A stretch of 64,000 nt of DNA from Bdellovibrionales bacterium (GCA_005801425.1 SYDY01000027.1:8444-72443); one strand, 5' to 3'; counted from the first letter of the stretch, positions 8,740 through 55,435 are shown. Notes: generated by a model not told the origin, from the letters alone. Numbers and translations: made by a program.

Positions 8740-8909
8740 GGGTGCCATCTCCGTGATCTGGGAAGGCATCGCTTAACGCGCTCCAGAATGGACGTCAACT
8801 CGGTGGCGTGAGAGATTATCTCTCTATCCCCGCGAAGCCCAGACAGCCCTTTGGGCCTAACAGGAAGTAGAGAAACTTGCGACGCAACGATACCACTTAT
8901 TTTTCTTAT

Positions 8910-8985
8910 GTAGGGGCGCTTCGCGAAGCGCCCGTGCGGCCTTTGAATCAACGTTTTATCGGGCGGTTCACGAACCGCCCCTACA
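8910..8985. repeat. Composite palindromic REP/MITE-like element (GTAGGGGCG...CGCCCCTAC), valS-murB intergenic
   Basis: A GTAGGGGCGCTTCGCGAAGCGCCC unit, a ~30 nt spacer, then the inverted unit GGGCGGTTCACGAACCGCCCCTAC. Member of a family seen at eight or more sites in this window. Confidence 0.85.
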
Positions 8986-9133
8986 AGAGAACACCTGCTC
9001 AATTCAAGTTTCTTAGGGAGGCGGGGATCCAGGTGCAGAACATCGGGGTTTCTGAAGGGATTACTAACTTGATGCGAGGCTGGGTCCCCGCCTTCGCGGG
9101 GATGACGTCTTCATTGATTCCGGTATTTTAAAT

Positions 9134-15485: not shown

Positions 15486-15491
15486 TGCGTG

Positions 15492-16817
15492 ATGCTCGAT
15501 GCCAATGAGATCAGGCAATGGCTTGATTTCAACGTCGGATCTTTTCGGTTATCGCCTGTGTGGGTGCTCGTCTATTGGCCTATTCTTGTTGGCATCGCTG
15601 CTGCGTTTGCGTTGCGTAAAATCAAAAAAAATGAAGTGATTCGGCGTTACGGCATTCTTCTTGTGTTGCCATTGCTTATCAATATCGTGTTGCTGTTCAC
15701 GGGATGGTTTTTTCACGAGCGTATGGGACAACGCATCGATCATGCCTTGGTTCAGCATGCTGTGATTGCACCTGTGTCATGGATTTTTAATACTTTGCTT
15801 CAGATCCCTGTGATCAGAGATCAGCCTCTCCATATCGGTGTTGATTCCTTTTCTGGCTACATCGCGCCAAGTTGCGCAGGAACCCAAGGATTGTTTATTT
15901 TTACGATGCTTGCTGGCGCATGGTATTTTGTTCTTCGTCCGACGACTTTTCGGCATCGATTGATTTATTTGGTGCTTATGTGCGTTGGTCTTTGTTTGGG
16001 TTTTGTCGGCAATTGGCTGCGTCTTGTTGCGTTGCTTTATGTTGGGGCACGTGTTGATCGCGATCTGGCCCTCGCAGGATTTCATGACGCTGCAGGTGGG
16101 ATCATTGTGCTGTTGAATTTTGCATTGTTTGCGTGGGTCACGCATCGTGCATTGAAGGGTGATGATGGCAAAGCATGGTTTGCGGGCAATCCTGTGGTGC
16201 CCTATGTAATGCCTTGGATGGTGTGGATGGCATTGGGGATGCTTTCTGCGCTGGTCACGGTGCAATGGGATTGGTCGTATCCGTTGCGTGCTGTGATTGT
16301 ATTTATCATCCTAGGGGTGCTGGCTGCGCCTTTTCCTCAGACAATGATAAGGGCGGTTCGCGAACCGCCCCTACAGTCTGTTCTTGCAGGTCTATTCATC
16401 GCAGCTGTATGGATTATTTGGGGCCATTACGTGCTCGACCATGACTTTGCAGGTCGCATGCCAACTTCACTACGTTTTTATCACATGTGGATCGTCGGTC
16501 GCATTTTAGGAACCGTACTTCTGATTCCAGTGATTGAAGAACTCGCTTTTCGTGGATTTCTTGCGCGCGCTTTACAAAAGCCCATGTTTCAAGATCTCAC
16601 GCCATCGGATCTTCGTTGGCCGGCCATGCTTATTTCATCGGTGATTTTTGGTGTTTTTCACGACGCGCTTGCGGTCCCAGGCGTGGGTGCCGGATTTATA
16701 TTTGCGTTGCTTTATCGCAAGAGTGGGACGCTTGCATCCCCGATCATTGCGCATGCTGTTGCAAATCTTGGTGTCGCTTTGTACGCGCTAACCACAGGGC
16801 AGTGGCAGCATCTTTAA
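15492..16817 (+). CDS. Exosortase fused to a CPBP (CAAX protease/Abi) intramembrane metalloprotease domain (exosortase E/protease-like)
   Basis: N-terminal polytopic domain with the exosortase Cys motif (IAPSCAGTQG), GNWLRLV (Asn/Arg) and a GFHDAAGG His motif. C-terminal CPBP motifs EELAFRGF, FGVFH and HAVAN. The ORF's GTG at 15489 is an alternative start. Confidence 0.75.
   Translation: MLDANEIRQWLDFNVGSFRLSPVWVLVYWPILVGIAAAFALRKIKKNEVIRRYGILLVLPLLINIVLLFTGWFFHERMGQRIDHALVQHAVIAPVSWIFNTLLQIPVIRDQPLHIGVDSFSGYIAPSCAGTQGLFIFTMLAGAWYFVLRPTTFRHRLIYLVLMCVGLCLGFVGNWLRLVALLYVGARVDRDLALAGFHDAAGGIIVLLNFALFAWVTHRALKGDDGKAWFAGNPVVPYVMPWMVWMALGMLSALVTVQWDWSYPLRAVIVFIILGVLAAPFPQTMIRAVREPPLQSVLAGLFIAAVWIIWGHYVLDHDFAGRMPTSLRFYHMWIVGRILGTVLLIPVIEELAFRGFLARALQKPMFQDLTPSDLRWPAMLISSVIFGVFHDALAVPGVGAGFIFALLYRKSGTLASPIIAHAVANLGVALYALTTGQWQHL
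16351..16374. repeat. Single REP-like unit (GGGCGGTTCGCGAACCGCCCCTAC) inserted in-frame within the exosortase-CPBP coding sequence
   Basis: Exact match to the repeat family unit. It translates as (R)AVREPPLQ(S) at the junction between the exosortase and CPBP domains. Confidence 0.8.
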
Positions 16818-19100: not shown

Positions 19101-19183
19101 TGGTAACCGCTCAGGAGATCTGGGCCATCGTATCTAAAATTGTTTCAGCGATCTCTGTTTAAGCATATCGTTAGCGTTGCCTT

Positions 19184-19663
19184 GCCATCCGTGTGCAGGT
19201 CCTCGCACGTCCACAAAAGCCACGTGACGCGCATGACTTTTGACTTGAATGTGTGTTTCTTGAGCGCGTCACAACGCTTTTGTGTCTTGTGCTCCGGTCC
19301 GTTCACACGGCAAGTGGCAAGGCAACGCTGTTTAGGGTTCGATGATTTTTCAGCCATCGCAGAGCCGGAGTTCCCGATTTTGCGGGGATGGCATCTTGAT
19401 ATGATCGGGCTGCATATCTACATATGTGACCAAGAGCGAGATACACGGGGTTCAATTTCAATCATAGAATGTTATCTGTTCTCTTTTGGTATACATGGTT
19501 AGTGTGACATGACAGCAAGCAGTGTCTCGCCACTTGCCGTGTGAACGGACCGGAGCACAAGACACAAAAGCGTTGTGACGCGTTTAAAAAATCCACTTCA
19601 CATCAAAATTTTATGCGCGTCACGTGGCTTTTGTGGACGTGCGAGGACCTGCACACGGATGGC
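19184..19663. repeat. Large imperfect inverted repeat (two perfect arm blocks of 51 and 54 bp separated by a symmetric 30-nt mismatch, with a 210-nt central loop)
   Basis: 19184-19234 is the reverse complement of 19613-19663, and 19265-19318 is the reverse complement of 19529-19582. The 30-nt segments 19235-19264 and 19583-19612 are not complementary. Intergenic between the ALDH gene and the GGDEF gene. Confidence 0.9.
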
Positions 19664-19704
19664 GAGATACTGCAAAAAAATAAGGATTTAAGCTTCGGAA
19701 TTTC

Positions 19705-28893: not shown

Positions 28894-29181
28894 ATGGCCA
28901 CGATGATTACGGAAGAATGCATTAATTGCGGCGCTTGTGAGCCGGAATGCCCCAACGAGGCCATCAGCGAAGGTGAGGACATTTTTATTATCGATCCCGA
29001 TCGTTGCACCGAATGTGTCGGTCATTTCGATACCGAGCAATGCGCTGCGGTATGTCCGGTCAATTGCTGTGTCACCGATCCCAACAACGAAGAAGCCGAG
29101 GCCCCTTTGCTCGCCCGCGCCAAGGTGGTTCATCCCTTGAAGATTTTTCCCGCCGATTATCCCTCGCGGTTTCGTCAGTAA
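28894..29181 (+). CDS. 2x[4Fe-4S] ferredoxin (YfhL-like)
   Basis: 95 aa with CINCGACEPECP and CTECVGH...C...CP cluster motifs. Confidence 0.8.
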   Translation: MATMITEECINCGACEPECPNEAISEGEDIFIIDPDRCTECVGHFDTEQCAAVCPVNCCVTDPNNEEAEAPLLARAKVVHPLKIFPADYPSRFRQ

Positions 29182-29954
29182 GGGTCTGCGAAAGTCTTAA
29201 ACGCACGTGCCAGTGATACTTTTCGATCATCTTTGAGAAAACTGTTGATGGTTTTTCCGTCAATGGCTGTCGCCTGATCGGGATTGCGTAAGTTGAACGT
29301 GGCGCGTGCGATCCCTGCCGCAAAAAAGCCAATGCATGTGACGGTTCCGTCGGCATCCACTTTTTCGACGATGGCGACCTGGGCAGGAATATCGGATGCT
29401 TTGCCAGTATTAAGAAAAACAAGGTCGCCGATTTTGGGATGTTCGCGGTGCAATTGTCGATTGCGATCTACCGATCGGTACAACACTTCCATGCCTTTGA
29501 TGTGATCACGTCGATAAACTGCAGGATGGATGATCTCCATATGGGCGCTCCAAAATGCTGCGCGCACCAAGCCGATGGGATCGGATTCAAATTTATAGCC
29601 GCGCACAAGCAGCGGTTGGCCCGATAAGAACTTTTTGGCTGCAGCAACCACGTGACTGCGTTTGCCCTGATTGGTGTCTTCTGACTTGTGATGTAGGGTA
29701 TCCGATGTGGAGAAGCTGATCACTTGAAGCAAGGCAGGCGCCCTTGGGCCTGTTGTGCAGGAAACACAGAAAAATATTATAATGGAATTAAAAAGAGCGG
29801 TTCGCTTTTTACGATCTGTTTTTCTCTTGTAGGGGCGCTTCGCGAAGCGCCCGTGCGGTTTTTGATTCAAAGTTTTATCGGGCGGCTCACGAGCCGCCCC
29901 TACTGGCAAGGCAATTTTGAATGGGGACCTCAATATAACCGCCTCGATGCGCAT
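29175..29954 (-). CDS. Hypothetical exported protein, distantly NlpC/P60-like (no catalytic Cys seen)
   Basis: 259-aa ORF starting at the ATG at 29954. The first ~30 codons read through palindromic element 29829-29903 (…GAAREPP…RFAKRPYKRK), followed by a hydrophobic segment ALFNSIIIFFCVSC. The family assignment is weak. Confidence 0.4.
   Translation of the reverse strand: MRIEAVILRSPFKIALPVGAAREPPDKTLNQKPHGRFAKRPYKRKTDRKKRTALFNSIIIFFCVSCTTGPRAPALLQVISFSTSDTLHHKSEDTNQGKRSHVVAAAKKFLSGQPLLVRGYKFESDPIGLVRAAFWSAHMEIIHPAVYRRDHIKGMEVLYRSVDRNRQLHREHPKIGDLVFLNTGKASDIPAQVAIVEKVDADGTVTCIGFFAAGIARATFNLRNPDQATAIDGKTINSFLKDDRKVSLARAFKTFADPY
29829..29903. repeat. Composite palindromic REP/MITE-like element, near-identical to the 8910-8985 copy
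   Basis: GTAGGGGCGCTTCGCGAAGCGCCC-GTGCGG-TTTTGATTCAA-AGTTTTATCG-GGCGGCTCACGAGCCGCCCCTAC. Located inside the 5' region of ORF 29175..29954. Confidence 0.85.
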
Positions 29955-29996
29955 ACCCTATCCTGATCAAATCGATGGCATGCGGCAAGAAAAATA

Positions 29997-34011: not shown

Positions 34012-36741
34012 TCAATGCGCTTCTGCCCATGTTCGTCCATGACCAACGTCCACCACGAGGGGGACATGAAGGCGCATGACGTGGCACATGTGATCGCGCA
34101 AAAGCGCTTGAACAGTCTCTGTGTGCTCCACAGGGCATTCGACGACCAACTCATCGTGGACTTGCAAAAGAAGATGGGCATCTAATTTCAAATTCGACAA
34201 GGCTTGATGGACACGGATCATCGCTAATTTGATAAGATCGGCGGCGCTACCTTGCAAGGGCGTATTCATGGCAATGCGTTCGGCCCCGCGTCGTACATTC
34301 ATATTGCGACTGTTTAAATCGGGCAAATAACGGCGTCTACCGCTGATGGTGCTGACAAAACCAGCATGCCGACCCTCTTCAATGGTTTTATCTAGAAAGG
34401 TTCGGATCCCAGGATAACGTGCAAAATAACGTTGGATATATGCAGAAGCTTCAGCCCGTCCAATATGAAGCTGTTTGGCCAAGCCAAATTCACTGAGGCC
34501 ATAGAGAATACCAAAATTAATGGCTTTGGCGCGTCTTCGTGCTTCTGCATCGGGTGGTGCGCCGCCTGTGAGAATTTCTTGCGCGGTTCGGCGGTGAATA
34601 TCTTCGCCATTAATAAACGCATCGCGAAAACTTTGATCATCACAAAGATGCGCAAGAATGCGCAATTCAATTTGTGAATAATCGGCAGAAACCAATACAT
34701 AACCTTCATCCGCGACAAACGCTTTTCGGATGCGTAAACCATCTTCCGTGCGAATGGGGATATTTTGCAAATTGGGATCGGAGCTTGAAAGTCTGCCAGT
34801 GGCAGTGCCGGTCTGGCGGTAGCTTGTGTGTACACGACCTGTACGTGGATTAAGCATTTTAGGAAGTGAGTCGACGTAGGTGGAGCATAATTTGGCCAGC
34901 ATACGATGTTCGATGATCCATCCTGCCAAGGGATAGGTTTCGGCAAGTTGTTCGAGCACTTCTTGATCGGTGCTAAAGCCTGTTTTTGTCTTTTTGAGGG
35001 CTGGATAGCCAAGCTCAACAAATAAAAGTTCGGCAAGTTGTTTGGGGCTTGCAAGATTGATTTCGTGACCCACTTCACGCACGATCCGTTGCTCAACTTC
35101 TGTCATTCTTCCACTAAATTCCACGGACAATGCTGCAAGTGCATCGAGATCAACCCGGATCCCCTTGGTTTCCATGGCGGCCAATACAGGAATAAGCGGA
35201 AGCTCTATATTGCGATACACATCGTCCAACGGTGTGCCCTGCAGTTTGGCAGAAAAATGCTGGCAGAGTTGCAGCGCAATATCGGCATCTTCTGCCGCGT
35301 AGGCTGTGGCTTCATCGACGGGAACCTGATCAAAGCCCACTTTGCCCTCGGGTCGTGTTGTCACATCTTCATAGGTGATCGTTTTGTAGCCAAGTGCTTG
35401 GTGTGCGAGGCTGTCCATGCTGAAGGATGCACGTGTGGGATCGAGCACGTAGGCAGCAAGCATCGAATCATCACGAATGCCTGCCAGTTGTATGCCGTGA
35501 TTGAGAAGCACCATCATGTCGTATTTCAGATTTTGTCCCAGCTTGCCGATCTTCGGATTTTCAAAAATCGGTTTCATCGCATGTAAAACATCTTCGTTGC
35601 TCAGATGCAGTGGCACTTTCTCGTCGTGATGCCCGGTTGGAATATAGCATGCATCATCGCTTGTCGTTGCCAATGAAAATCCGACAATATGTGCCTCGGT
35701 GGTATCAAGCGAAGTTGTTTCGAGATCGACACTCACAAAACCAACTTTTTGTATGCGTGCGATGATTGTGTTGAGATCGTTGATCGTAAGTATCGTTTTA
35801 TAATTGCGCTCAGGAATTGGCAAAGTCGTTTGGGTTTGGAATAAATCCTGTTGATTGGGAGGCGCTGGTTTAACAGGGTTCGAACGATGAAGATCACGGA
35901 GCAGCGATGAAGCTTCGATGCGTTCTAGAAAGGGTGCGAGGCGTGCTTCTTCTGGATGGCTGTAGCGCAGGGCATCAAGATCAAGCGCCACGGGGACGTG
36001 GCTATCCAAAGTGACCAGTCGCATGGACAATCGTGCACTTTCGATATGATCAATTACCGATTGTTCGGCTGCTTTGCGTTTTTGCACGCTTTGAAGTCCG
36101 CGGTAAACCGCTTCAATATCGCCATACGTATTGATTAATTTGGCAGCCGTTTTCACACCCACTTTGGGCACGCCCGGAATATTGTCGCTGGTGTCACCGG
36201 CCATGGCTTGAACTTGCGTGACGAGATTTGGGGGAACACCAAATTTTTCAATCACATCGGCATCGCTCATGTCTTTGTCTTTCATGGGATCAAAGAGCGC
36301 GATGCCTTCTTGCATCAATTGCATGAGATCTTTATCGGAACTTACAACCACAACCTGGTGTCCAGCCGCATGGGCTTTTTGTGCCAGAGTCGCAATGATA
36401 TCATCGGCTTCGTAGCCAGGGTTATACAGTACCGGAATGCCCATGGCCTCAACCAATTCACGGATCAATGCAAATTGGGGAACAAGATCTTCAGGCGGTT
36501 CTTCGCGATTGGCTTTGTATTCGGCATAAATGTTTTTTCTAAAATTTTCTCGTGAATCAAATGCAATGCCCAAATAATGGGGTGATCTGTCTTTGATCAA
36601 TTTGAGCAACATGCGCGCGGTGCCTATGACCGCGTTGGTGGGGGTACCATCGCGTGTGGATAACGGGCGTATGGCATAATAGGCACGAAAAATGAAACCG
36701 CTACCATCAACAAGGTACACTTTTTCTTCAGACAAACTCAT
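34012..36741 (-). CDS. polA: DNA polymerase I
   Basis: 909 aa with 5'-3' exonuclease, 3'-5' exonuclease and polymerase domains (…RRRAKAINFGILYGLS…, …LLQVHDELVVE…). Confidence 0.95.
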   Translation of the reverse strand: MSLSEEKVYLVDGSGFIFRAYYAIRPLSTRDGTPTNAVIGTARMLLKLIKDRSPHYLGIAFDSRENFRKNIYAEYKANREEPPEDLVPQFALIRELVEAMGIPVLYNPGYEADDIIATLAQKAHAAGHQVVVVSSDKDLMQLMQEGIALFDPMKDKDMSDADVIEKFGVPPNLVTQVQAMAGDTSDNIPGVPKVGVKTAAKLINTYGDIEAVYRGLQSVQKRKAAEQSVIDHIESARLSMRLVTLDSHVPVALDLDALRYSHPEEARLAPFLERIEASSLLRDLHRSNPVKPAPPNQQDLFQTQTTLPIPERNYKTILTINDLNTIIARIQKVGFVSVDLETTSLDTTEAHIVGFSLATTSDDACYIPTGHHDEKVPLHLSNEDVLHAMKPIFENPKIGKLGQNLKYDMMVLLNHGIQLAGIRDDSMLAAYVLDPTRASFSMDSLAHQALGYKTITYEDVTTRPEGKVGFDQVPVDEATAYAAEDADIALQLCQHFSAKLQGTPLDDVYRNIELPLIPVLAAMETKGIRVDLDALAALSVEFSGRMTEVEQRIVREVGHEINLASPKQLAELLFVELGYPALKKTKTGFSTDQEVLEQLAETYPLAGWIIEHRMLAKLCSTYVDSLPKMLNPRTGRVHTSYRQTGTATGRLSSSDPNLQNIPIRTEDGLRIRKAFVADEGYVLVSADYSQIELRILAHLCDDQSFRDAFINGEDIHRRTAQEILTGGAPPDAEARRRAKAINFGILYGLSEFGLAKQLHIGRAEASAYIQRYFARYPGIRTFLDKTIEEGRHAGFVSTISGRRRYLPDLNSRNMNVRRGAERIAMNTPLQGSAADLIKLAMIRVHQALSNLKLDAHLLLQVHDELVVECPVEHTETVQALLRDHMCHVMRLHVPLVVDVGHGRTWAEAH

Positions 36742-37961
36742 GGTTTTGGAATCGTTTCATCGTAAATTTTTAGACCGCGAATGGCCGTTGAATAGTAGGC
36801 GATCACAAGACGACCTTGGCTGTCTGCAGCCATGGCAAGATATTTCCCCACGGGGCCTTCGGTGTCGATGACGGTATGCGTCCATACGCCGCTCGCATAG
36901 CGCAAAAGATCAAACGTTTCGTGGTCGGGCCGCCTCGGGGTGATATGCTCAAAGGCAATGGCCAAATCACCGTTGGGCAATTGCGCTTGTGCCATATTGC
37001 CGACGCCCTTAAACACGCGCTGATCATGCCATGTTCCGGTGCTGTCTTGTTCTGCAACACGGATATTGATGGGGAGACCGGCTGTGTACGTCACACGCGG
37101 CAATTGACCGACCCAGCTTAATTGACTGTGCCAACCATGGGAATGATCTTCTCCGATGCGTTCTTGTTTGAGTGCATTGAGTGGGCCATGGGCCACGTAA
37201 AGTTCGGTGTCTCGGGCATTCCAATCCACAAAAGAGATCCACCATTGATCGCCCTGTTGCTGTACATCGATGCGGGCAGAATATCCGCCGGTGGCGTCAA
37301 ATAGGATGGTTTTTACCCACTCGCCATCTTTGGGCCCGCGTGTGGCATGGACCAATTTTCCACCGGCTGTGTAATAAAAAACATGCGGACTATTTTGTGC
37401 GTCAAATCGCAATTCCGCACCCATGCCGACTTCATGGCCCCATGCAATCTCTTCGGTTTTCCAAGGTGCAGCTTCGTTGTCGCGCGTTGCGATGCGTAAC
37501 TTTTTCTGATCTTGATCGTGAAATGCGATGGCAAGGTGATTATTTTTGTCGGAAGCGATTGACGTGTATTTGCCTATATTGCCTTGGGTGATGACGTCTT
37601 CAACAACCCATGAATCGCCATGTTTTGTGGCGTATTTAAGATCGCCTTGGTGGGCATCGCAAAAGCTGACGTGGGGTCGGTCTTTGGCATCAAAGATAAC
37701 GCTTGGCCACCATCCTGTGTCGCCTTCTTCACCGCCACTTGCAAGGACGCCTAAACTTGCATGCGGTGGATTTTGTTCTTCGACAACAACGATGTTTTTT
37801 GTGCATGCGGTGAGGATAAGCAAAATCACTGCAAGGCATTTATAGGTAGGGGTGGTTCGTGAACCGCCCTTAACAAAATCGTCATTCTCATGAATACGGG
37901 GTTCTGTGAAGAAGGGCGGTTTGCGAACCGCCCCTACAACGCTGCAATTCTTTCTCTTCAC
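36738..37961 (-). CDS. Hypothetical lipoprotein with beta-propeller-like repeats
   Basis: The ATG at 37961 overlaps the holA stop (ATGA). The N-terminus reads through repeat element 37846-37937 (…VGAVRKPP…GGSRTTPTY), then KCLAVILLILTAC (lipobox LTAC). The mature part contains repeated W/D-rich blades. Confidence 0.55.
   Translation of the reverse strand: MKRKNCSVVGAVRKPPFFTEPRIHENDDFVKGGSRTTPTYKCLAVILLILTACTKNIVVVEEQNPPHASLGVLASGGEEGDTGWWPSVIFDAKDRPHVSFCDAHQGDLKYATKHGDSWVVEDVITQGNIGKYTSIASDKNNHLAIAFHDQDQKKLRIATRDNEAAPWKTEEIAWGHEVGMGAELRFDAQNSPHVFYYTAGGKLVHATRGPKDGEWVKTILFDATGGYSARIDVQQQGDQWWISFVDWNARDTELYVAHGPLNALKQERIGEDHSHGWHSQLSWVGQLPRVTYTAGLPINIRVAEQDSTGTWHDQRVFKGVGNMAQAQLPNGDLAIAFEHITPRRPDHETFDLLRYASGVWTHTVIDTEGPVGKYLAMAADSQGRLVIAYYSTAIRGLKIYDETIPKP
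37846..37937. repeat. Composite palindromic REP/MITE-like element embedded in the 5' end of a lipoprotein gene
   Basis: GTAGGGGTGGTTCGTGAACCGCCC, a 44-nt spacer, then GGGCGGTTTGCGAACCGCCCCTAC. Confidence 0.85.
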
Positions 37962-38968
37962 GTATGTTCTCCTGCAATCGCATCAATAAATTGCTCAAGT
38001 GCCGTGGCGGGCGGTATGGCGCTGCCTTTGAGCGCGCTGTCGGTATCCATGGCCTGCTGTAACGCGATCATGAGTTGATGGGTGGTATGGTGTTTGGCTT
38101 GCGCGGCAAAGCTGTCGTTCAGAAAAGGCGGTACGCCTGCATCGCGGAGCGCCTGGGCGCGGGAAATCCCAGAATCCAAAGTTGATCGAAACAACAACAG
38201 CATGCGCAATTGCCTGGTGATCATGGCGAGAATTTGCAGGGGCGCATCACCGCGGCGCATGGCATAGCGCAGGGCCATGCGTGCTTTGTCTTTGTCTTTG
38301 TTGCCGATGGCATCGGTGAGTGCAAAGATCGATTGAATATCACCGAGATCGCATGTTTCGCGAATCGCTTCGACGTCCACCGATTTTTTGGGGTCACCAT
38401 GATAACAAAATGCGCGATCCAAGGCCATATCGATGCTTGCGGTTTCGGCCTGGATGTTCATGGCCAATAGGGCAATGGCATCGTGATCTATGGTGATCCC
38501 GAGGCGATCAGCACGGCGTTTGATAAATGCGGGAAGCTGTGCACGACCCGGCGGTTCGAGAAGGAAGCATGCAGGGAGTGATGCGAGTTGTTTTCCTAAG
38601 AGTGTACGTAAATCGGGTTTTTGTCCCGAGAGGCAGAGGGTCGTGGTTGAGGCCGGTGCTTGCACATATTTAAGCAGCACATCGTTGGCGGCTTTTGGAA
38701 GCTCATGCAGATCCATCACATGCACAAAACGTCGGGATGCCATCATCGGCAAGGTATGAACAGCGGCTGAAAAACGGTCGGCGTCAAATTCGCGTCCGTT
38801 AAATATATCGTGATTGAAATCCCAGGCTTGGTTTGTGCAAAGCGTTTGAACGAAATGTATTGCTTCCTCATTCAACGCGCGATCGGATCCAAAGACACCA
38901 AAGATCGCGGGTGGACCCTGTTTTGCGAGTATGTTCTGGTAAGCATCAAAATCGTGTCGTAAAGGCAT
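37958..38968 (-). CDS. holA: DNA polymerase III subunit delta
   Basis: ORF 37958..39025. The HolA-like N-terminus begins at the Met at 38968 (MPLRHDFDAYQNILAKQGPPAIFGVFGSD). The size is typical of HolA. Confidence 0.75.
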   Translation of the reverse strand: MPLRHDFDAYQNILAKQGPPAIFGVFGSDRALNEEAIHFVQTLCTNQAWDFNHDIFNGREFDADRFSAAVHTLPMMASRRFVHVMDLHELPKAANDVLLKYVQAPASTTTLCLSGQKPDLRTLLGKQLASLPACFLLEPPGRAQLPAFIKRRADRLGITIDHDAIALLAMNIQAETASIDMALDRAFCYHGDPKKSVDVEAIRETCDLGDIQSIFALTDAIGNKDKDKARMALRYAMRRGDAPLQILAMITRQLRMLLLFRSTLDSGISRAQALRDAGVPPFLNDSFAAQAKHHTTHQLMIALQQAMDTDSALKGSAIPPATALEQFIDAIAGEHT

Positions 38969-39093
38969 TGCGTTGGGATTAAACCGGCAACCCCCTGGCT
39001 TGCAAGGCACCTGGTCTTGCATCACCTTGCATCCGTACCCGGCCGGATGATAGATGTCACGGGGTTTAGTGGGGACTTCGTAAGCAAACGTAA

Positions 39094-45268: not shown

Positions 45269-45359
45269 GTAGGGGCGGTTCGCGAACCGCCCTGTTGTTC
45301 TCAATACATTGTTCGCGCCAATACGTTTGCCTAACGGGCCGTTCACGAACGGCCCCTAC
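45269..45359. repeat. Composite palindromic REP/MITE-like element
   Basis: GTAGGGGCGGTTCGCGAACCGCCC, a 43-nt spacer, then GGGCCGTTCACGAACGGCCCCTAC. It lies between rodA and a truncated nucleotidyltransferase ORF. Confidence 0.85.
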
Positions 45360-50480: not shown

Positions 50481-51209
50481 TTAAGGTAAATCCGCAATCT
50501 TTGATGGTGTTAAATCCCAGGTCATTTGAGTGGTTCCAAGTGCGCTTGCGATGCGCATAACAAACTTGGTGGTATGGGGCTCTATGACCAATTTGTCTGT
50601 GGGGTCAATCAGAGGAAAGCGGACCAAATACGCTCGGTCAAAATCCCCGAGATAGCCATAAACGGCTTTTAAATTGGCATCGATTTTGACCCGTGAAATT
50701 TGGGCGGCCTGAACGGTAATATTCTGATCCGGATTGGTGAGCGTGATGCGCCAAATGGAGTCTGCGCGATCAAGGTCGTTCCATTTGAGATCGGGTGTAT
50801 AGGCTTTGAGTAAAAACGTATGGAACGTTTCGGCGTCGCTTGAAAGATCAACCAATTCGCGGCGTGTAACCTCGCCCCCATGACCGTAGATATCGGGGAA
50901 TTTTAAACCGAATGCACGCCTAAATTGCGGGGCATGAAATGTTGATGATGCAAACAATACATTGTCGAGAACATTGTAGAGTTTGGCATGTCGTGTCCAT
51001 TGGGCGAACGTACGATCGTAATCACGATCGTCAACTTCGCTGATAGAACCGAACAGTGTAGGCGGTGGGATAGGTTTGCATGCCGAAAGGAGCGCGAGCA
51101 AGATGAAGGCAAGGGCGGTTCGCGAACCGCCCCTACAAAAAAACAGTGTGGGGGTCGTTCGTGAACGACCCTTATTTAATAAAATCAGATTTCTTAAAGA
51201 GACTCGCAT
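50481..51209 (-). CDS. Hypothetical lipoprotein
   Basis: ORF 50481..51350 overlaps pyrE upstream. The first ATG at 51209 gives MRVSLRNLILLNKGRSRTTPTLFFCRGGSRTALAFILLALLSAC (lipobox LSAC). This N-terminus is encoded by repeat units 51113-51170. Start uncertain. Confidence 0.45.
   Translation of the reverse strand: MRVSLRNLILLNKGRSRTTPTLFFCRGGSRTALAFILLALLSACKPIPPPTLFGSISEVDDRDYDRTFAQWTRHAKLYNVLDNVLFASSTFHAPQFRRAFGLKFPDIYGHGGEVTRRELVDLSSDAETFHTFLLKAYTPDLKWNDLDRADSIWRITLTNPDQNITVQAAQISRVKIDANLKAVYGYLGDFDRAYLVRFPLIDPTDKLVIEPHTTKFVMRIASALGTTQMTWDLTPSKIADLP
51113..51170. repeat. Two adjacent REP-like units (GGGCGGTTCGCGAACCGCCCCTAC, a short A-rich spacer, then GTGGGGGTCGTTCGTGAACGACCC)
   Basis: The units are arranged opposite to the composite elements elsewhere (inverted unit first). 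Located at the pyrE 3' end and the lipoprotein 5' end. Confidence 0.8.
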
Positions 51210-51750
51210 AGGGGAGACCCGTCGCACGAATGTTGTTGGCACCGTTGTCCTCTTCCCTGTCCACCAAAGCAAGTACTGCAATGGGCAGCAAGCCTTCCTC
51301 ACGCACGCGTTCGATAGCCCGCAAGGTGGAACCGCCGGTGGTGACCACATCTTCGATCACCAGGACTGGATCGCCAATTTTTAGCGCTTTTAGACCTTCG
51401 ATCCAGCGACCAGTTCCATGGCCTTTGGGCTCTTTGCGCACGATAAATGCGTGGGCTGGGGCGCCCTTTTGTTGGCTGATCACGGCTGCGGCCGCAGCCA
51501 TGGGATCGGCGCCGAGCGTAATGCCGCCAACGCCTACGATGGTTGCGCCTTCATGACGCAGTGTTTGAATGTGTTCAAAAATCAATTCACCGATCAGCAG
51601 ACATCCTTCGGCTTGAAGTGCCGTTTGTTTGCAATCGACATAAAAATCGCTGGTTTTGCCAGATGCCAAGGTAAAAGTTCCGGTACGCACCGAATATTCT
51701 TGGAGCAATTGGCGGAGTCTGTTGATTTTATCGGTATTGAAATTTGTCAT
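51172..51750 (-). CDS. pyrE: Orotate phosphoribosyltransferase
   Basis: 192 aa with the PRPP-binding motif (VLVIEDVVTTGGS). Confidence 0.9.
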   Translation of the reverse strand: MTNFNTDKINRLRQLLQEYSVRTGTFTLASGKTSDFYVDCKQTALQAEGCLLIGELIFEHIQTLRHEGATIVGVGGITLGADPMAAAAAVISQQKGAPAHAFIVRKEPKGHGTGRWIEGLKALKIGDPVLVIEDVVTTGGSTLRAIERVREEGLLPIAVLALVDREEDNGANNIRATGLPYASLFKKSDFIK

Positions 51751-55379: not shown

Positions 55380-55411
55380 GGATGTATTTTGCATTGTACA
55401 ACCTTGCTCAA

Positions 55412-55435
55412 GGGCGGTTCGCGAACCGCCCCTAC
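55412..55435. repeat. Single REP-like unit (GGGCGGTTCGCGAACCGCCCCTAC), followed by a GC-rich hairpin
   Basis: Exact family unit upstream of hemL. The adjacent sequence CGCCCCCGCCTTCGCGAGGG resembles the CCCCGCCTTCGCGGGG hairpin at 9084-9100. Confidence 0.8.

Follow-up and report, generated by a model that had tools for sequence, protein, structure and literature searches.

Palindromic REP doublets, most likely translated as extra-long signal-peptide leaders, in three lipoprotein genes of a Bdellovibrionales bacterium

Three lipoprotein genes with repeats at their 5' ends

The 64,000-nt stretch of DNA from a Bdellovibrionales bacterium analyzed here (GCA_005801425.1, SYDY01000027.1:8444-72443; hereafter the window) carries three minus-strand lipoprotein genes, referred to as genes 1, 2, and 3 (Table 1), whose first codons are occupied by copies of a short GC-rich palindrome of the repetitive extragenic palindromic (REP) type. 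An earlier note on this DNA had pointed to a palindromic element just ahead of the signal-peptide core in all three, and this holds: the repeat is real and multi-copy, the three open reading frames (ORFs) run through it without a stop, and the translations that were quoted are correct, namely VGAVRKPP and GGSRTTPT in gene 1, VGAAREPP and GRFAKRPY in gene 2, and GRSRTTPT and RGGSRTA in gene 3. The note had described one unit, in the same orientation in the three genes; there are in fact two repeats per gene, which face opposite ways as in a REPIN (an inverted REP doublet that folds as a hairpin). In genes 1 and 2 the core-proximal repeat has tail-to-head orientation, with CTAC at its end; in gene 3 it has head-to-tail orientation, with GTAG first, and the frame in which the repeat is read is not the same from gene to gene.

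A lipobox has the form [LVI][ASTVI][GAS]C and is preceded by a hydrophobic core of 7-22 residues. As the note had stated, such a core and motif follow the repeats, with LTAC in gene 1 and LSAC in gene 3 after 10-12 hydrophobic residues, whereas the CVSC of gene 2 is atypical; the predicted lipobox Cys of each of the three genes aligns with the lipobox Cys of its homologs. In genes 1, 2, and 3, respectively, 52, 65, and 43 residues precede this Cys, which places it at residues 53, 66, and 44, compared with homolog medians of 18, 15, and 20. The leaders of all three carry a net positive charge; the homologs have the Cys at residues 13-26 (gene 1), 13-17 (gene 2), and 10-51 (gene 3), and a signal peptide with a short cationic n-region typically totals 15-30 residues. 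From sequence comparison, the REPs in the first codons of these genes are most likely translated as extra-long, disposable signal-peptide leaders.

Table 1. Genes, start signals, and repeats in the window, numbered from its first nucleotide
Feature	Position	Strand	Details
Gene 1, unknown-family lipoprotein	36738-37961	-	407 aa; GTG start 37961; translationally coupled to holA (upstream) and polA (downstream)
Gene 1 start GTG	37959-37961	-	Overlaps holA stop (37958-37960) as GTGA
Gene 1 Shine-Dalgarno AGGAG	37969-37973	-	7 nt upstream of GTG
Gene 1 doublet	37846-37937	.	92 nt; one long REPIN-type hairpin, -51.8 kcal/mol, z = -6.2
Gene 1 start-proximal repeat, GTAGGGGCGGTTCGCAAACCGCCCT	37913-37937	-	Read as V-GAVRKPP
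Gene 1 core-proximal repeat	37846-37870	+	Head on + strand; mRNA reads GGSRTTPT
Gene 1 lipobox Cys codon (LTAC)	37803-37805	-	Residue 53; homolog Cys at 13-26
holA	37958-39025	-	TIGR01128, E = 2e-57 (NCBIfam); upstream of gene 1
Gene 2, CHAP-like lipoprotein	29175-29954	-	259 aa; ATG 29954
Gene 2 Shine-Dalgarno AGGA	29961-29964	-	6 nt upstream of ATG 29954
Gene 2 doublet	29829-29903	.	75 nt = 25 codons; hairpin -55.7 kcal/mol
Gene 2 lipobox Cys (CVSC)	29757-29759	-	Residue 66; motif atypical
Gene 3, conserved lipoprotein	50481-51209	-	242 aa as annotated from candidate start ATG 51209
Gene 3 doublet	51112-51172	.	Abuts pyrE stop
Gene 3 start-proximal repeat, GTGGGGGTCGTTCGTGAACGACCCT	51148-51172	+	Tail abuts pyrE stop; read as GRSRTTPT
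Gene 3 core-proximal repeat	51112-51136	-	Read as RGGSRTA; ends 12 codons before lipobox Cys
Gene 3 lipobox Cys (LSAC)	51078-51080	-	Residue 44 from ATG 51209
pyrE	51172-51750	-	TIGR00336, E = 7e-38 (NCBIfam); 3' end would overlap gene 3
Exosortase E/CPBP protease fusion gene	15489-16817	+	442-aa ORF; TIGR04162, 148 bits, one continuous stretch across insert
Single repeat, exosortase gene	16350-16374	-	In frame, mid-gene
Intergenic doublet	8910-8984	.	75 nt; between valS and murB (names inferred from translations)
Intergenic doublet	45269-45359	.	Downstream of rodA/ftsW-like gene
Single repeat, 5' untranslated region (UTR) of hemL-like gene	55411-55435	-	ATG 17 nt downstream with own AAGG Shine-Dalgarno

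Gene 1 and a relative without the repeat

That the repeats of gene 1 lie inside its coding sequence is well supported by a start codon conserved on the holA stop, a Shine-Dalgarno sequence upstream of it, and an in-frame insertion of 38 codons. The earlier note had placed the start at 37961 and coupled it to holA, and was right in both respects, although the codon is GTG and not ATG, and the overlap GTGA and not ATGA. In the window, holA, gene 1, and polA are linked in series, each stop overlapping the next start by 4 nt (GTGA at 37958-37961; 36738-36741). The pairing of holA with the lipoprotein gene is kept in distant homologs, with lptE and leuS upstream, and two distant homologs of gene 1 (37-42% identity) stand directly after holA with overlaps of 4 nt and 7 nt.

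The note had proposed a comparison with relatives that lack the repeat, and the closest relative (P0002/L001, 82% identity) allows it. There the lipoprotein gene has no repeat, its ATG overlaps the holA stop as TGATG, GGAGGA lies just upstream in the same place as the AGGAG of the window, and the signal peptide is 14 residues long (MHTKYVIVCTFITA-C). Relative to L001, gene 1 has 38 extra in-frame codons between the start and the hydrophobic core, the 92-nt doublet included, and thus holds an in-frame palindromic element within an intact ORF; the ancestral MKRK N-terminus and the start survive upstream of the insert. The identical 407-aa protein, insert included, is present in three independent metagenome assemblies (NCBI, ENA, and Logan). 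Within the start-proximal repeat, a G-to-A change disrupts the palindrome and replaces Glu by Lys (GAVREPP to GAVRKPP). The canonical starts that follow the repeats give only MILLILTAC or MLILTAC, neither with a charged n-region or a Shine-Dalgarno sequence, and an out-of-frame ATG at 37834, considered as a further candidate, runs into a stop and encodes no signal peptide.

Start codons of genes 2 and 3

Every in-frame ATG, GTG, TTG, CTG, and ATH codon of genes 1-3 was enumerated and scored for a Shine-Dalgarno sequence, a match of at least 5 nt being found at 3.5% of random positions. In none of the three genes does an ATG, GTG, or TTG stand between the core-proximal repeat and a hydrophobic core that could function, and no downstream start yields a workable signal peptide. 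Because such a canonical start is missing after the core-proximal repeat in genes 2 and 3, downstream initiation would leave them signal peptides of at most 8 residues without a charged n-region. The earlier note's view that the repeats belong to the reading frames and not to the 5' UTR is therefore strong for gene 1 and supported by elimination for genes 2 and 3.

The usual explanation of REPs at annotated N-termini (PMC3733652) is the opposite one: the repeats would be 5'-UTR hairpins with a post-transcriptional role, the start would lie downstream at a GTG or TTG in the core or at a noncanonical codon, and the ORF extension would be an annotation artefact. The element is open in most frames and can extend an ORF by chance, as it does at L133, in a related metagenome contig, and at L004, in another phylum, where the gene has its own Met after the repeat; further, many genes of the window lack a Shine-Dalgarno sequence. 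For genes 1-3, however, we consider this explanation unlikely. The downstream canonical starts would leave gene 1 with MILLILTAC at most and gene 3 with MLALLSAC, while gene 2 has none before the Cys; such leaders contain no Lys or Arg and are shorter than that of any lipobox-bearing homolog detected (smallest Cys position 13, 13, and 10 for genes 1, 2, and 3), no downstream start is preceded by a Shine-Dalgarno sequence, and in gene 1 both the conserved start position and the Shine-Dalgarno sequence lie upstream of the repeats.

Homologs of gene 2 have the Cys at residues 13-17, and there is no relative above 42% identity, nor can the ancestral 5' end be aligned at the DNA level. Directly after its 75-nt doublet stands KRKTDRKKRTALFNSIIIFFCVSC, which contains no canonical start codon. 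A basic cluster, KRKTDRKKR, lies between the core-proximal repeat and the hydrophobic core, outside the 24-nt unit that runs from GTAG to CCC; the codons with which it opens (AAGAGAA) also occur in the flank of the intergenic copy at 8910-8984 and may, on this similarity, be repeat-derived. Removal of the 25-codon doublet would notionally join TTG 29909 to PKRKTDRKKRT and give a normal leader of 26 residues.

For gene 3 the note had correctly placed ATG 51209 at 38 nt inside the 3' end of pyrE (stop at 51172-51174), but this is not the only upstream start, as GTG 51227, GTG 51242, and ATG 51350 are also in frame. The homologs are ordinary lipoproteins (Cys at 10-51, median 20), and their order, pyrE and then the lipoprotein gene, is conserved with either a 4-nt overlap (L122) or a 2-nt gap, which implies an ancestor without a spacer for a UTR element. 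The doublet now takes up all the sequence from the pyrE stop to the hydrophobic core, leaving nothing of the ancestral start and n-region; no relative exceeds 54% identity, and the ancestral 5' end is not alignable at the DNA level. After the repeats, the only canonical start is TTG 51101. Since no workable start lies downstream, translation of gene 3, if it is still expressed, must begin upstream (51209, 51227, or 51242) or re-initiate near the pyrE stop, and with any of these starts the repeats would be translated. Gene 3 is the only case of the three in which the start must be new, and in it alone the repeat-encoded Arg are the only charges adjoining the hydrophobic core; the repeat-encoded R-T-A aligns with K-T-A in the L122 leader.

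The same losses in gene 3, together with a nearest ATG that has no Shine-Dalgarno sequence and lies within pyrE, could mean that the insertions destroyed initiation and that at least one gene, most plausibly gene 3, is a young pseudogene with an intact body. The core-proximal repeat of gene 3 was the one place flagged, weakly, as terminator-like, and no sigma-70-like promoter was predicted between the repeats and the gene bodies. We regard decay as improbable, since the bodies of genes 1-3 are full length, align end to end with homologs, and keep the invariant residues, while gene 1 retains its start, its Shine-Dalgarno sequence, and its frame. Frames are also open through the repeats in 3 of 3 genes, whereas a random doublet insertion would leave the frame open about 1 time in 8 for each gene, as estimated from the frame, the TAG of the head, and the spacer.

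The repeat element and its copies

The 12 copies in the window share one form, GTAG-GGGCGGTTCGCGAACCGCCC, which is a GC-rich palindrome with a one-sided head. When the copies are oriented and aligned, the unpaired head is GTAG in 11 and GTGG in one, and a pyrimidine-rich run usually lies 5' of it. The 21-nt core GGGGCGGTTCGCGAACCGCCC, with up to 3 mismatches, has 11 sites in the window versus none in 100 shuffles, and a looser pattern picks up the additional copy at 51151-51172. These features agree with the sequence definition of GTAG-type REPs, GT(A/G)G at one end of a 20-40-nt GC-rich palindrome, and the copies are dispersed as those of such REPs are (12 in 64 kb of the window, 26 in 107 kb of related contigs). 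They are spread over seven loci, as doublets at five and as singles at two, and the doublets, with a conserved spacer in the 75-nt unit and folding as a single hairpin in genes 1 and 2, correspond to the inverted dimers known as REPINs or bacterial interspersed mosaic elements (BIMEs).

The doublet at 8910-8984 and that at 29829-29903, both of 75 nt, differ very little even in the spacer, and the unit recurs with its spacer in related metagenome contigs, which indicates that the doublet is copied as a unit. Between valS and murB, the similarity to related contigs outreaches the doublet (window 8825-9032; up to 208 nt at 90% identity, L127), and the repeated unit there may be longer than a REP doublet. 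No RAYT-like ORF (RAYT, REP-associated tyrosine transposase) was found in the 64-kb window by tblastn, and in an Rfam scan tRNA alone reached threshold, with no RNA family covering the repeats. Elsewhere in the window, a 149-nt inverted repeat (19181-19329 and 19518-19666) has arms that are 87% complementary and 188 nt apart, with similar sequence in a related contig (L136).

Read directly, the consensus is open in five of six frames, the closed one reading the TAG of the GTAG head, and every one of the five open frames encodes one Arg or more (VGAVREPP, RGGSRTA, GRFANRPY, AVREPPL, and GGSRTAPT). Four of the seven loci sit in reading frames. The fourth of these, not mentioned in the earlier note, is the single repeat located mid-gene in the exosortase E/CPBP protease fusion gene; it encodes RAVREPPL, residues 288-295, which occupy a loop connecting transmembrane helices. 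Of 59 aligned homologs, at least 53 lack the RAVR; both halves of the ORF are covered by homologs, and one stretch of the hidden Markov model (HMM) match extends across the insert, as expected for an in-frame palindromic element in an intact ORF. An insert within an ORF that aligns with homologs in this way indicates that in-frame, translated copies of the repeat exist in this genome.

Copies in related contigs and other genomes

The related set consists of SXGR/SXGS metagenome contigs (107 kb) that contain 15 further repeat loci, most of them extragenic and typically just downstream of gene 3' ends. None of the 15 leads into a lipoprotein signal peptide. Among the matches listed in other phyla, 1 of 128 copies leads into a lipoprotein-like leader (L004), again with its own Met, and among the matches listed in other genomes, 9 of 87 copies lie well inside long ORFs, compared with 62% of random positions. 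An insertion preference for signal peptides is not supported by the related-contig loci or the other-phyla copies, and the signal-peptide arrangement is not a general property of the element.

These counts bear on whether the repeats were recruited, that is, selected because they supply cationic n-regions or new starts, or because their hairpins tune the coupling with an upstream housekeeping gene. Much in the window invites the idea: 3 of its 5 lipoprotein-like genes carry 5' repeats, every open frame offers an Arg, the charges next to the core of gene 3 are solely repeat-encoded, the Glu-to-Lys change in gene 1 breaks the palindrome, and the spacer of the conserved 75-nt doublet contains an in-frame TTG. 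We nevertheless find recruitment quite improbable, given how few copies elsewhere precede a lipoprotein signal peptide, how frames and orientations differ among genes 1-3, and that homologs function with signal peptides of 13-25 residues. The enrichment in the window, moreover, was noticed post hoc and is explained by survivorship in a tolerant site. The earlier note's suggestion that the repeats provide cationic n-regions or new starts is only partly borne out: it fits gene 3, but gene 1 retains MKRK and its start, and in genes 1 and 2 there are Lys/Arg clusters outside the 24-nt units.

A 20-nt core of the REP, nearly always with GTAG/CTAC heads, occurs in at least 117 stretches of other genomes, in metagenome-assembled genomes (MAGs) of Chloroflexota, Acidobacteriota, Omnitrophota, Cyanobacteriota, Nitrospinota, and Desulfobacterota, among others; REP families do not usually stay so nearly identical from phylum to phylum. 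In other genomes the palindrome has RAYT-like genes beside it or enclosing it (NF047646, E = 1e-16 to 1e-19, below the curated cutoff; PF01797). The full 28-nt palindrome, GTAGGGGCGGTTCGCGAACCGCCCCTAC, is found inside RAYT-like Y1 transposase ORFs of a Dehalococcoidia (L065, 540-559), a Calditrichaceae (L021, 48-67), and a Chloroflexota (L081, 2086-2105), whose proteins are 54-64% identical; in each it occupies the same loop, immediately behind the HUH motif, and translates as (G)RGGSRTAPT. The dispersal of the element over many phyla could be accounted for by such a REP "seed" within its own transposase gene. In a cyanobacterial MAG, a REP is in frame in a hydantoinase/oxoprolinase-like ORF (L016, 5439-5458; PVFPGRGGSRTAPTDPIFYVASRGH).

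Tolerated insertions into disposable leaders

The best reading of these observations, and in our judgment a probable one, is that the REPs are tolerated in-frame insertions into cleavable lipoprotein leaders and not adaptive recruits. A GTAG-type REP is a non-autonomous palindromic element, often found as inverted doublets, and three such doublets would have inserted within the first few codons of lipoprotein genes that start on or next to an upstream stop codon in a gene-dense genome. The n-region of a signal peptide should tolerate changes of length and sequence and would be removed by signal peptidase II, so that in-frame, stop-free insertions would be near-neutral and retained. The inserts would then be translated as 24-51 extra residues before the hydrophobic core, with the mature proteins unchanged, and gene 3 would now start inside the 3' end of pyrE or re-initiate at the pyrE stop. 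We favor survivorship over targeting or recruitment: with no intergenic spacer at these genes, the only insertions to survive would be those that are in frame, stop-free, and in a tolerant, cleaved segment.

Several observations weigh against this reading. Leaders with 43-65 residues before the Cys are far beyond the homolog range, hairpins of about -50 kcal/mol lie inside the first 40 codons, and the extension of gene 1 carries E, D, and D. Gene 3 has several candidate starts and no Shine-Dalgarno sequence at ATG 51209, and the Shine-Dalgarno match is itself a weak discriminator, being present in just 14 of 40 long ORFs of the window versus a background of 14%. The one look-alike in the related contigs, L133, has its own Met after the repeat, and most N-terminal REPs in a published survey were judged to be misannotations with the true start downstream (PMC3733652). 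If the gene 1 doublet is simply cut out, with all 92 nt from its GTAG to its CTAC, a frameshift and a TAA result; since excision fails to restore the frame, the insertion history of gene 1 was no clean cut-and-paste. An 8-nt flank similarity at this doublet, TTGCAGYG, is non-significant by estimate, and no further copies of the gene 1 spacer or of its 22-nt flank occur in any locus retrieved.

A bolder proposal, which we hold to be doubtful, is that DNA of a selfish repeat has become indispensable coding sequence, with a new start in pyrE and repeat-encoded Arg as the only n-region charges in gene 3, and with later adaptation in gene 1. The ancestral start of gene 3 would then have been overwritten and a true overlap with pyrE of at least 38 nt created, and the palindrome-breaking Glu-to-Lys change hints at later adaptation of gene 1. 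If true, this would be a documented route for REPs to create new functional N-termini of secreted proteins.

REPs are "extragenic" by name, and N-terminal copies are routinely dismissed as start-codon errors; the window offers three linked cases in which this dismissal fails, and a fourth, clean one in mid-gene. These cases suggest that, in gene-dense genomes, REPs can land safely in the n-regions of cleavable signal peptides and in loops of membrane proteins. Annotation is affected in practice: were their ORFs cut back to the first start that follows a REP, these proteins would lose their signal peptides. The locus is also a small, testable example of mobile DNA becoming translated sequence, possibly with a new pyrE overlap.

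Comparison with known systems

In-frame palindromic insertions have a precedent in the Rickettsia palindromic elements (RPE-1 and related elements), which Ogata et al. in 2000 reportedly described as selfish sequences lying in frame in protein-coding genes at permissive sites. The repeats of the window show RPE-like behavior, as selfish palindromes in frame at structurally permissive sites. N-terminally RPE-decorated proteins have been reported to be expressed in Rickettsia, and RPE-4 and RPE-6 belong to the CGTC super-family, while RPE-1 is a longer palindromic insertion (PMC3733652). The head here is GTAG and not CGTC, so that the element behaves like an RPE but is none; further, RPEs reside in an obligate intracellular alphaproteobacterium, whereas the present element, a GTAG REP of 24 nt or a doublet of 75-92 nt, belongs to a free-living organism whose MAG appears Myxococcota-like from the names of homologs.

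The REPIN/RAYT system is said to have been set out by Bertels and Rainey in 2011. Related work includes that of Nunvar et al. 2010 (PMC2817692) and a study of TnpA-REP (PMC8266576). Like REPINs, the inverted doublets of the window form a single long hairpin, doublet and spacer are copied together, and they share the GTAG tetranucleotide recognized by RAYT. In contrast to that system, the 64-kb window has no RAYT gene, four of its seven loci sit in reading frames although REPINs are described as extragenic, and in other phyla the same palindrome is found inside RAYT-like ORFs instead of flanking them.

The closest comparison is with the intragenic GTAG- and CGTC-tagged REPs surveyed by Di Nocera, De Gregorio, and Rocco 2013 (PMC3733652), which likewise have a GTAG head beside a GC-rich palindrome and occur as singles and as inverted dimers with conserved spacers. 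In that survey REPs were mostly extragenic, with a minority in frame in real genes, where they encode 8-30 residues, and a sizeable share at annotated N-termini; neither text nor supplements refer to signal peptides or lipoproteins, and the supplements do not mention these peptide motifs either. Unlike the N-terminal cases described there, gene 1 has comparative evidence that argues the opposite, and genes 2 and 3 have no usable downstream start. In-frame intragenic REPs and RPEs are thus already documented and the advance is incremental; what is particular here is that a lipoprotein leader incorporates the repeat, which a downstream start does not explain away. The fate of selfish DNA in these genes is unusual, yet not unprecedented.

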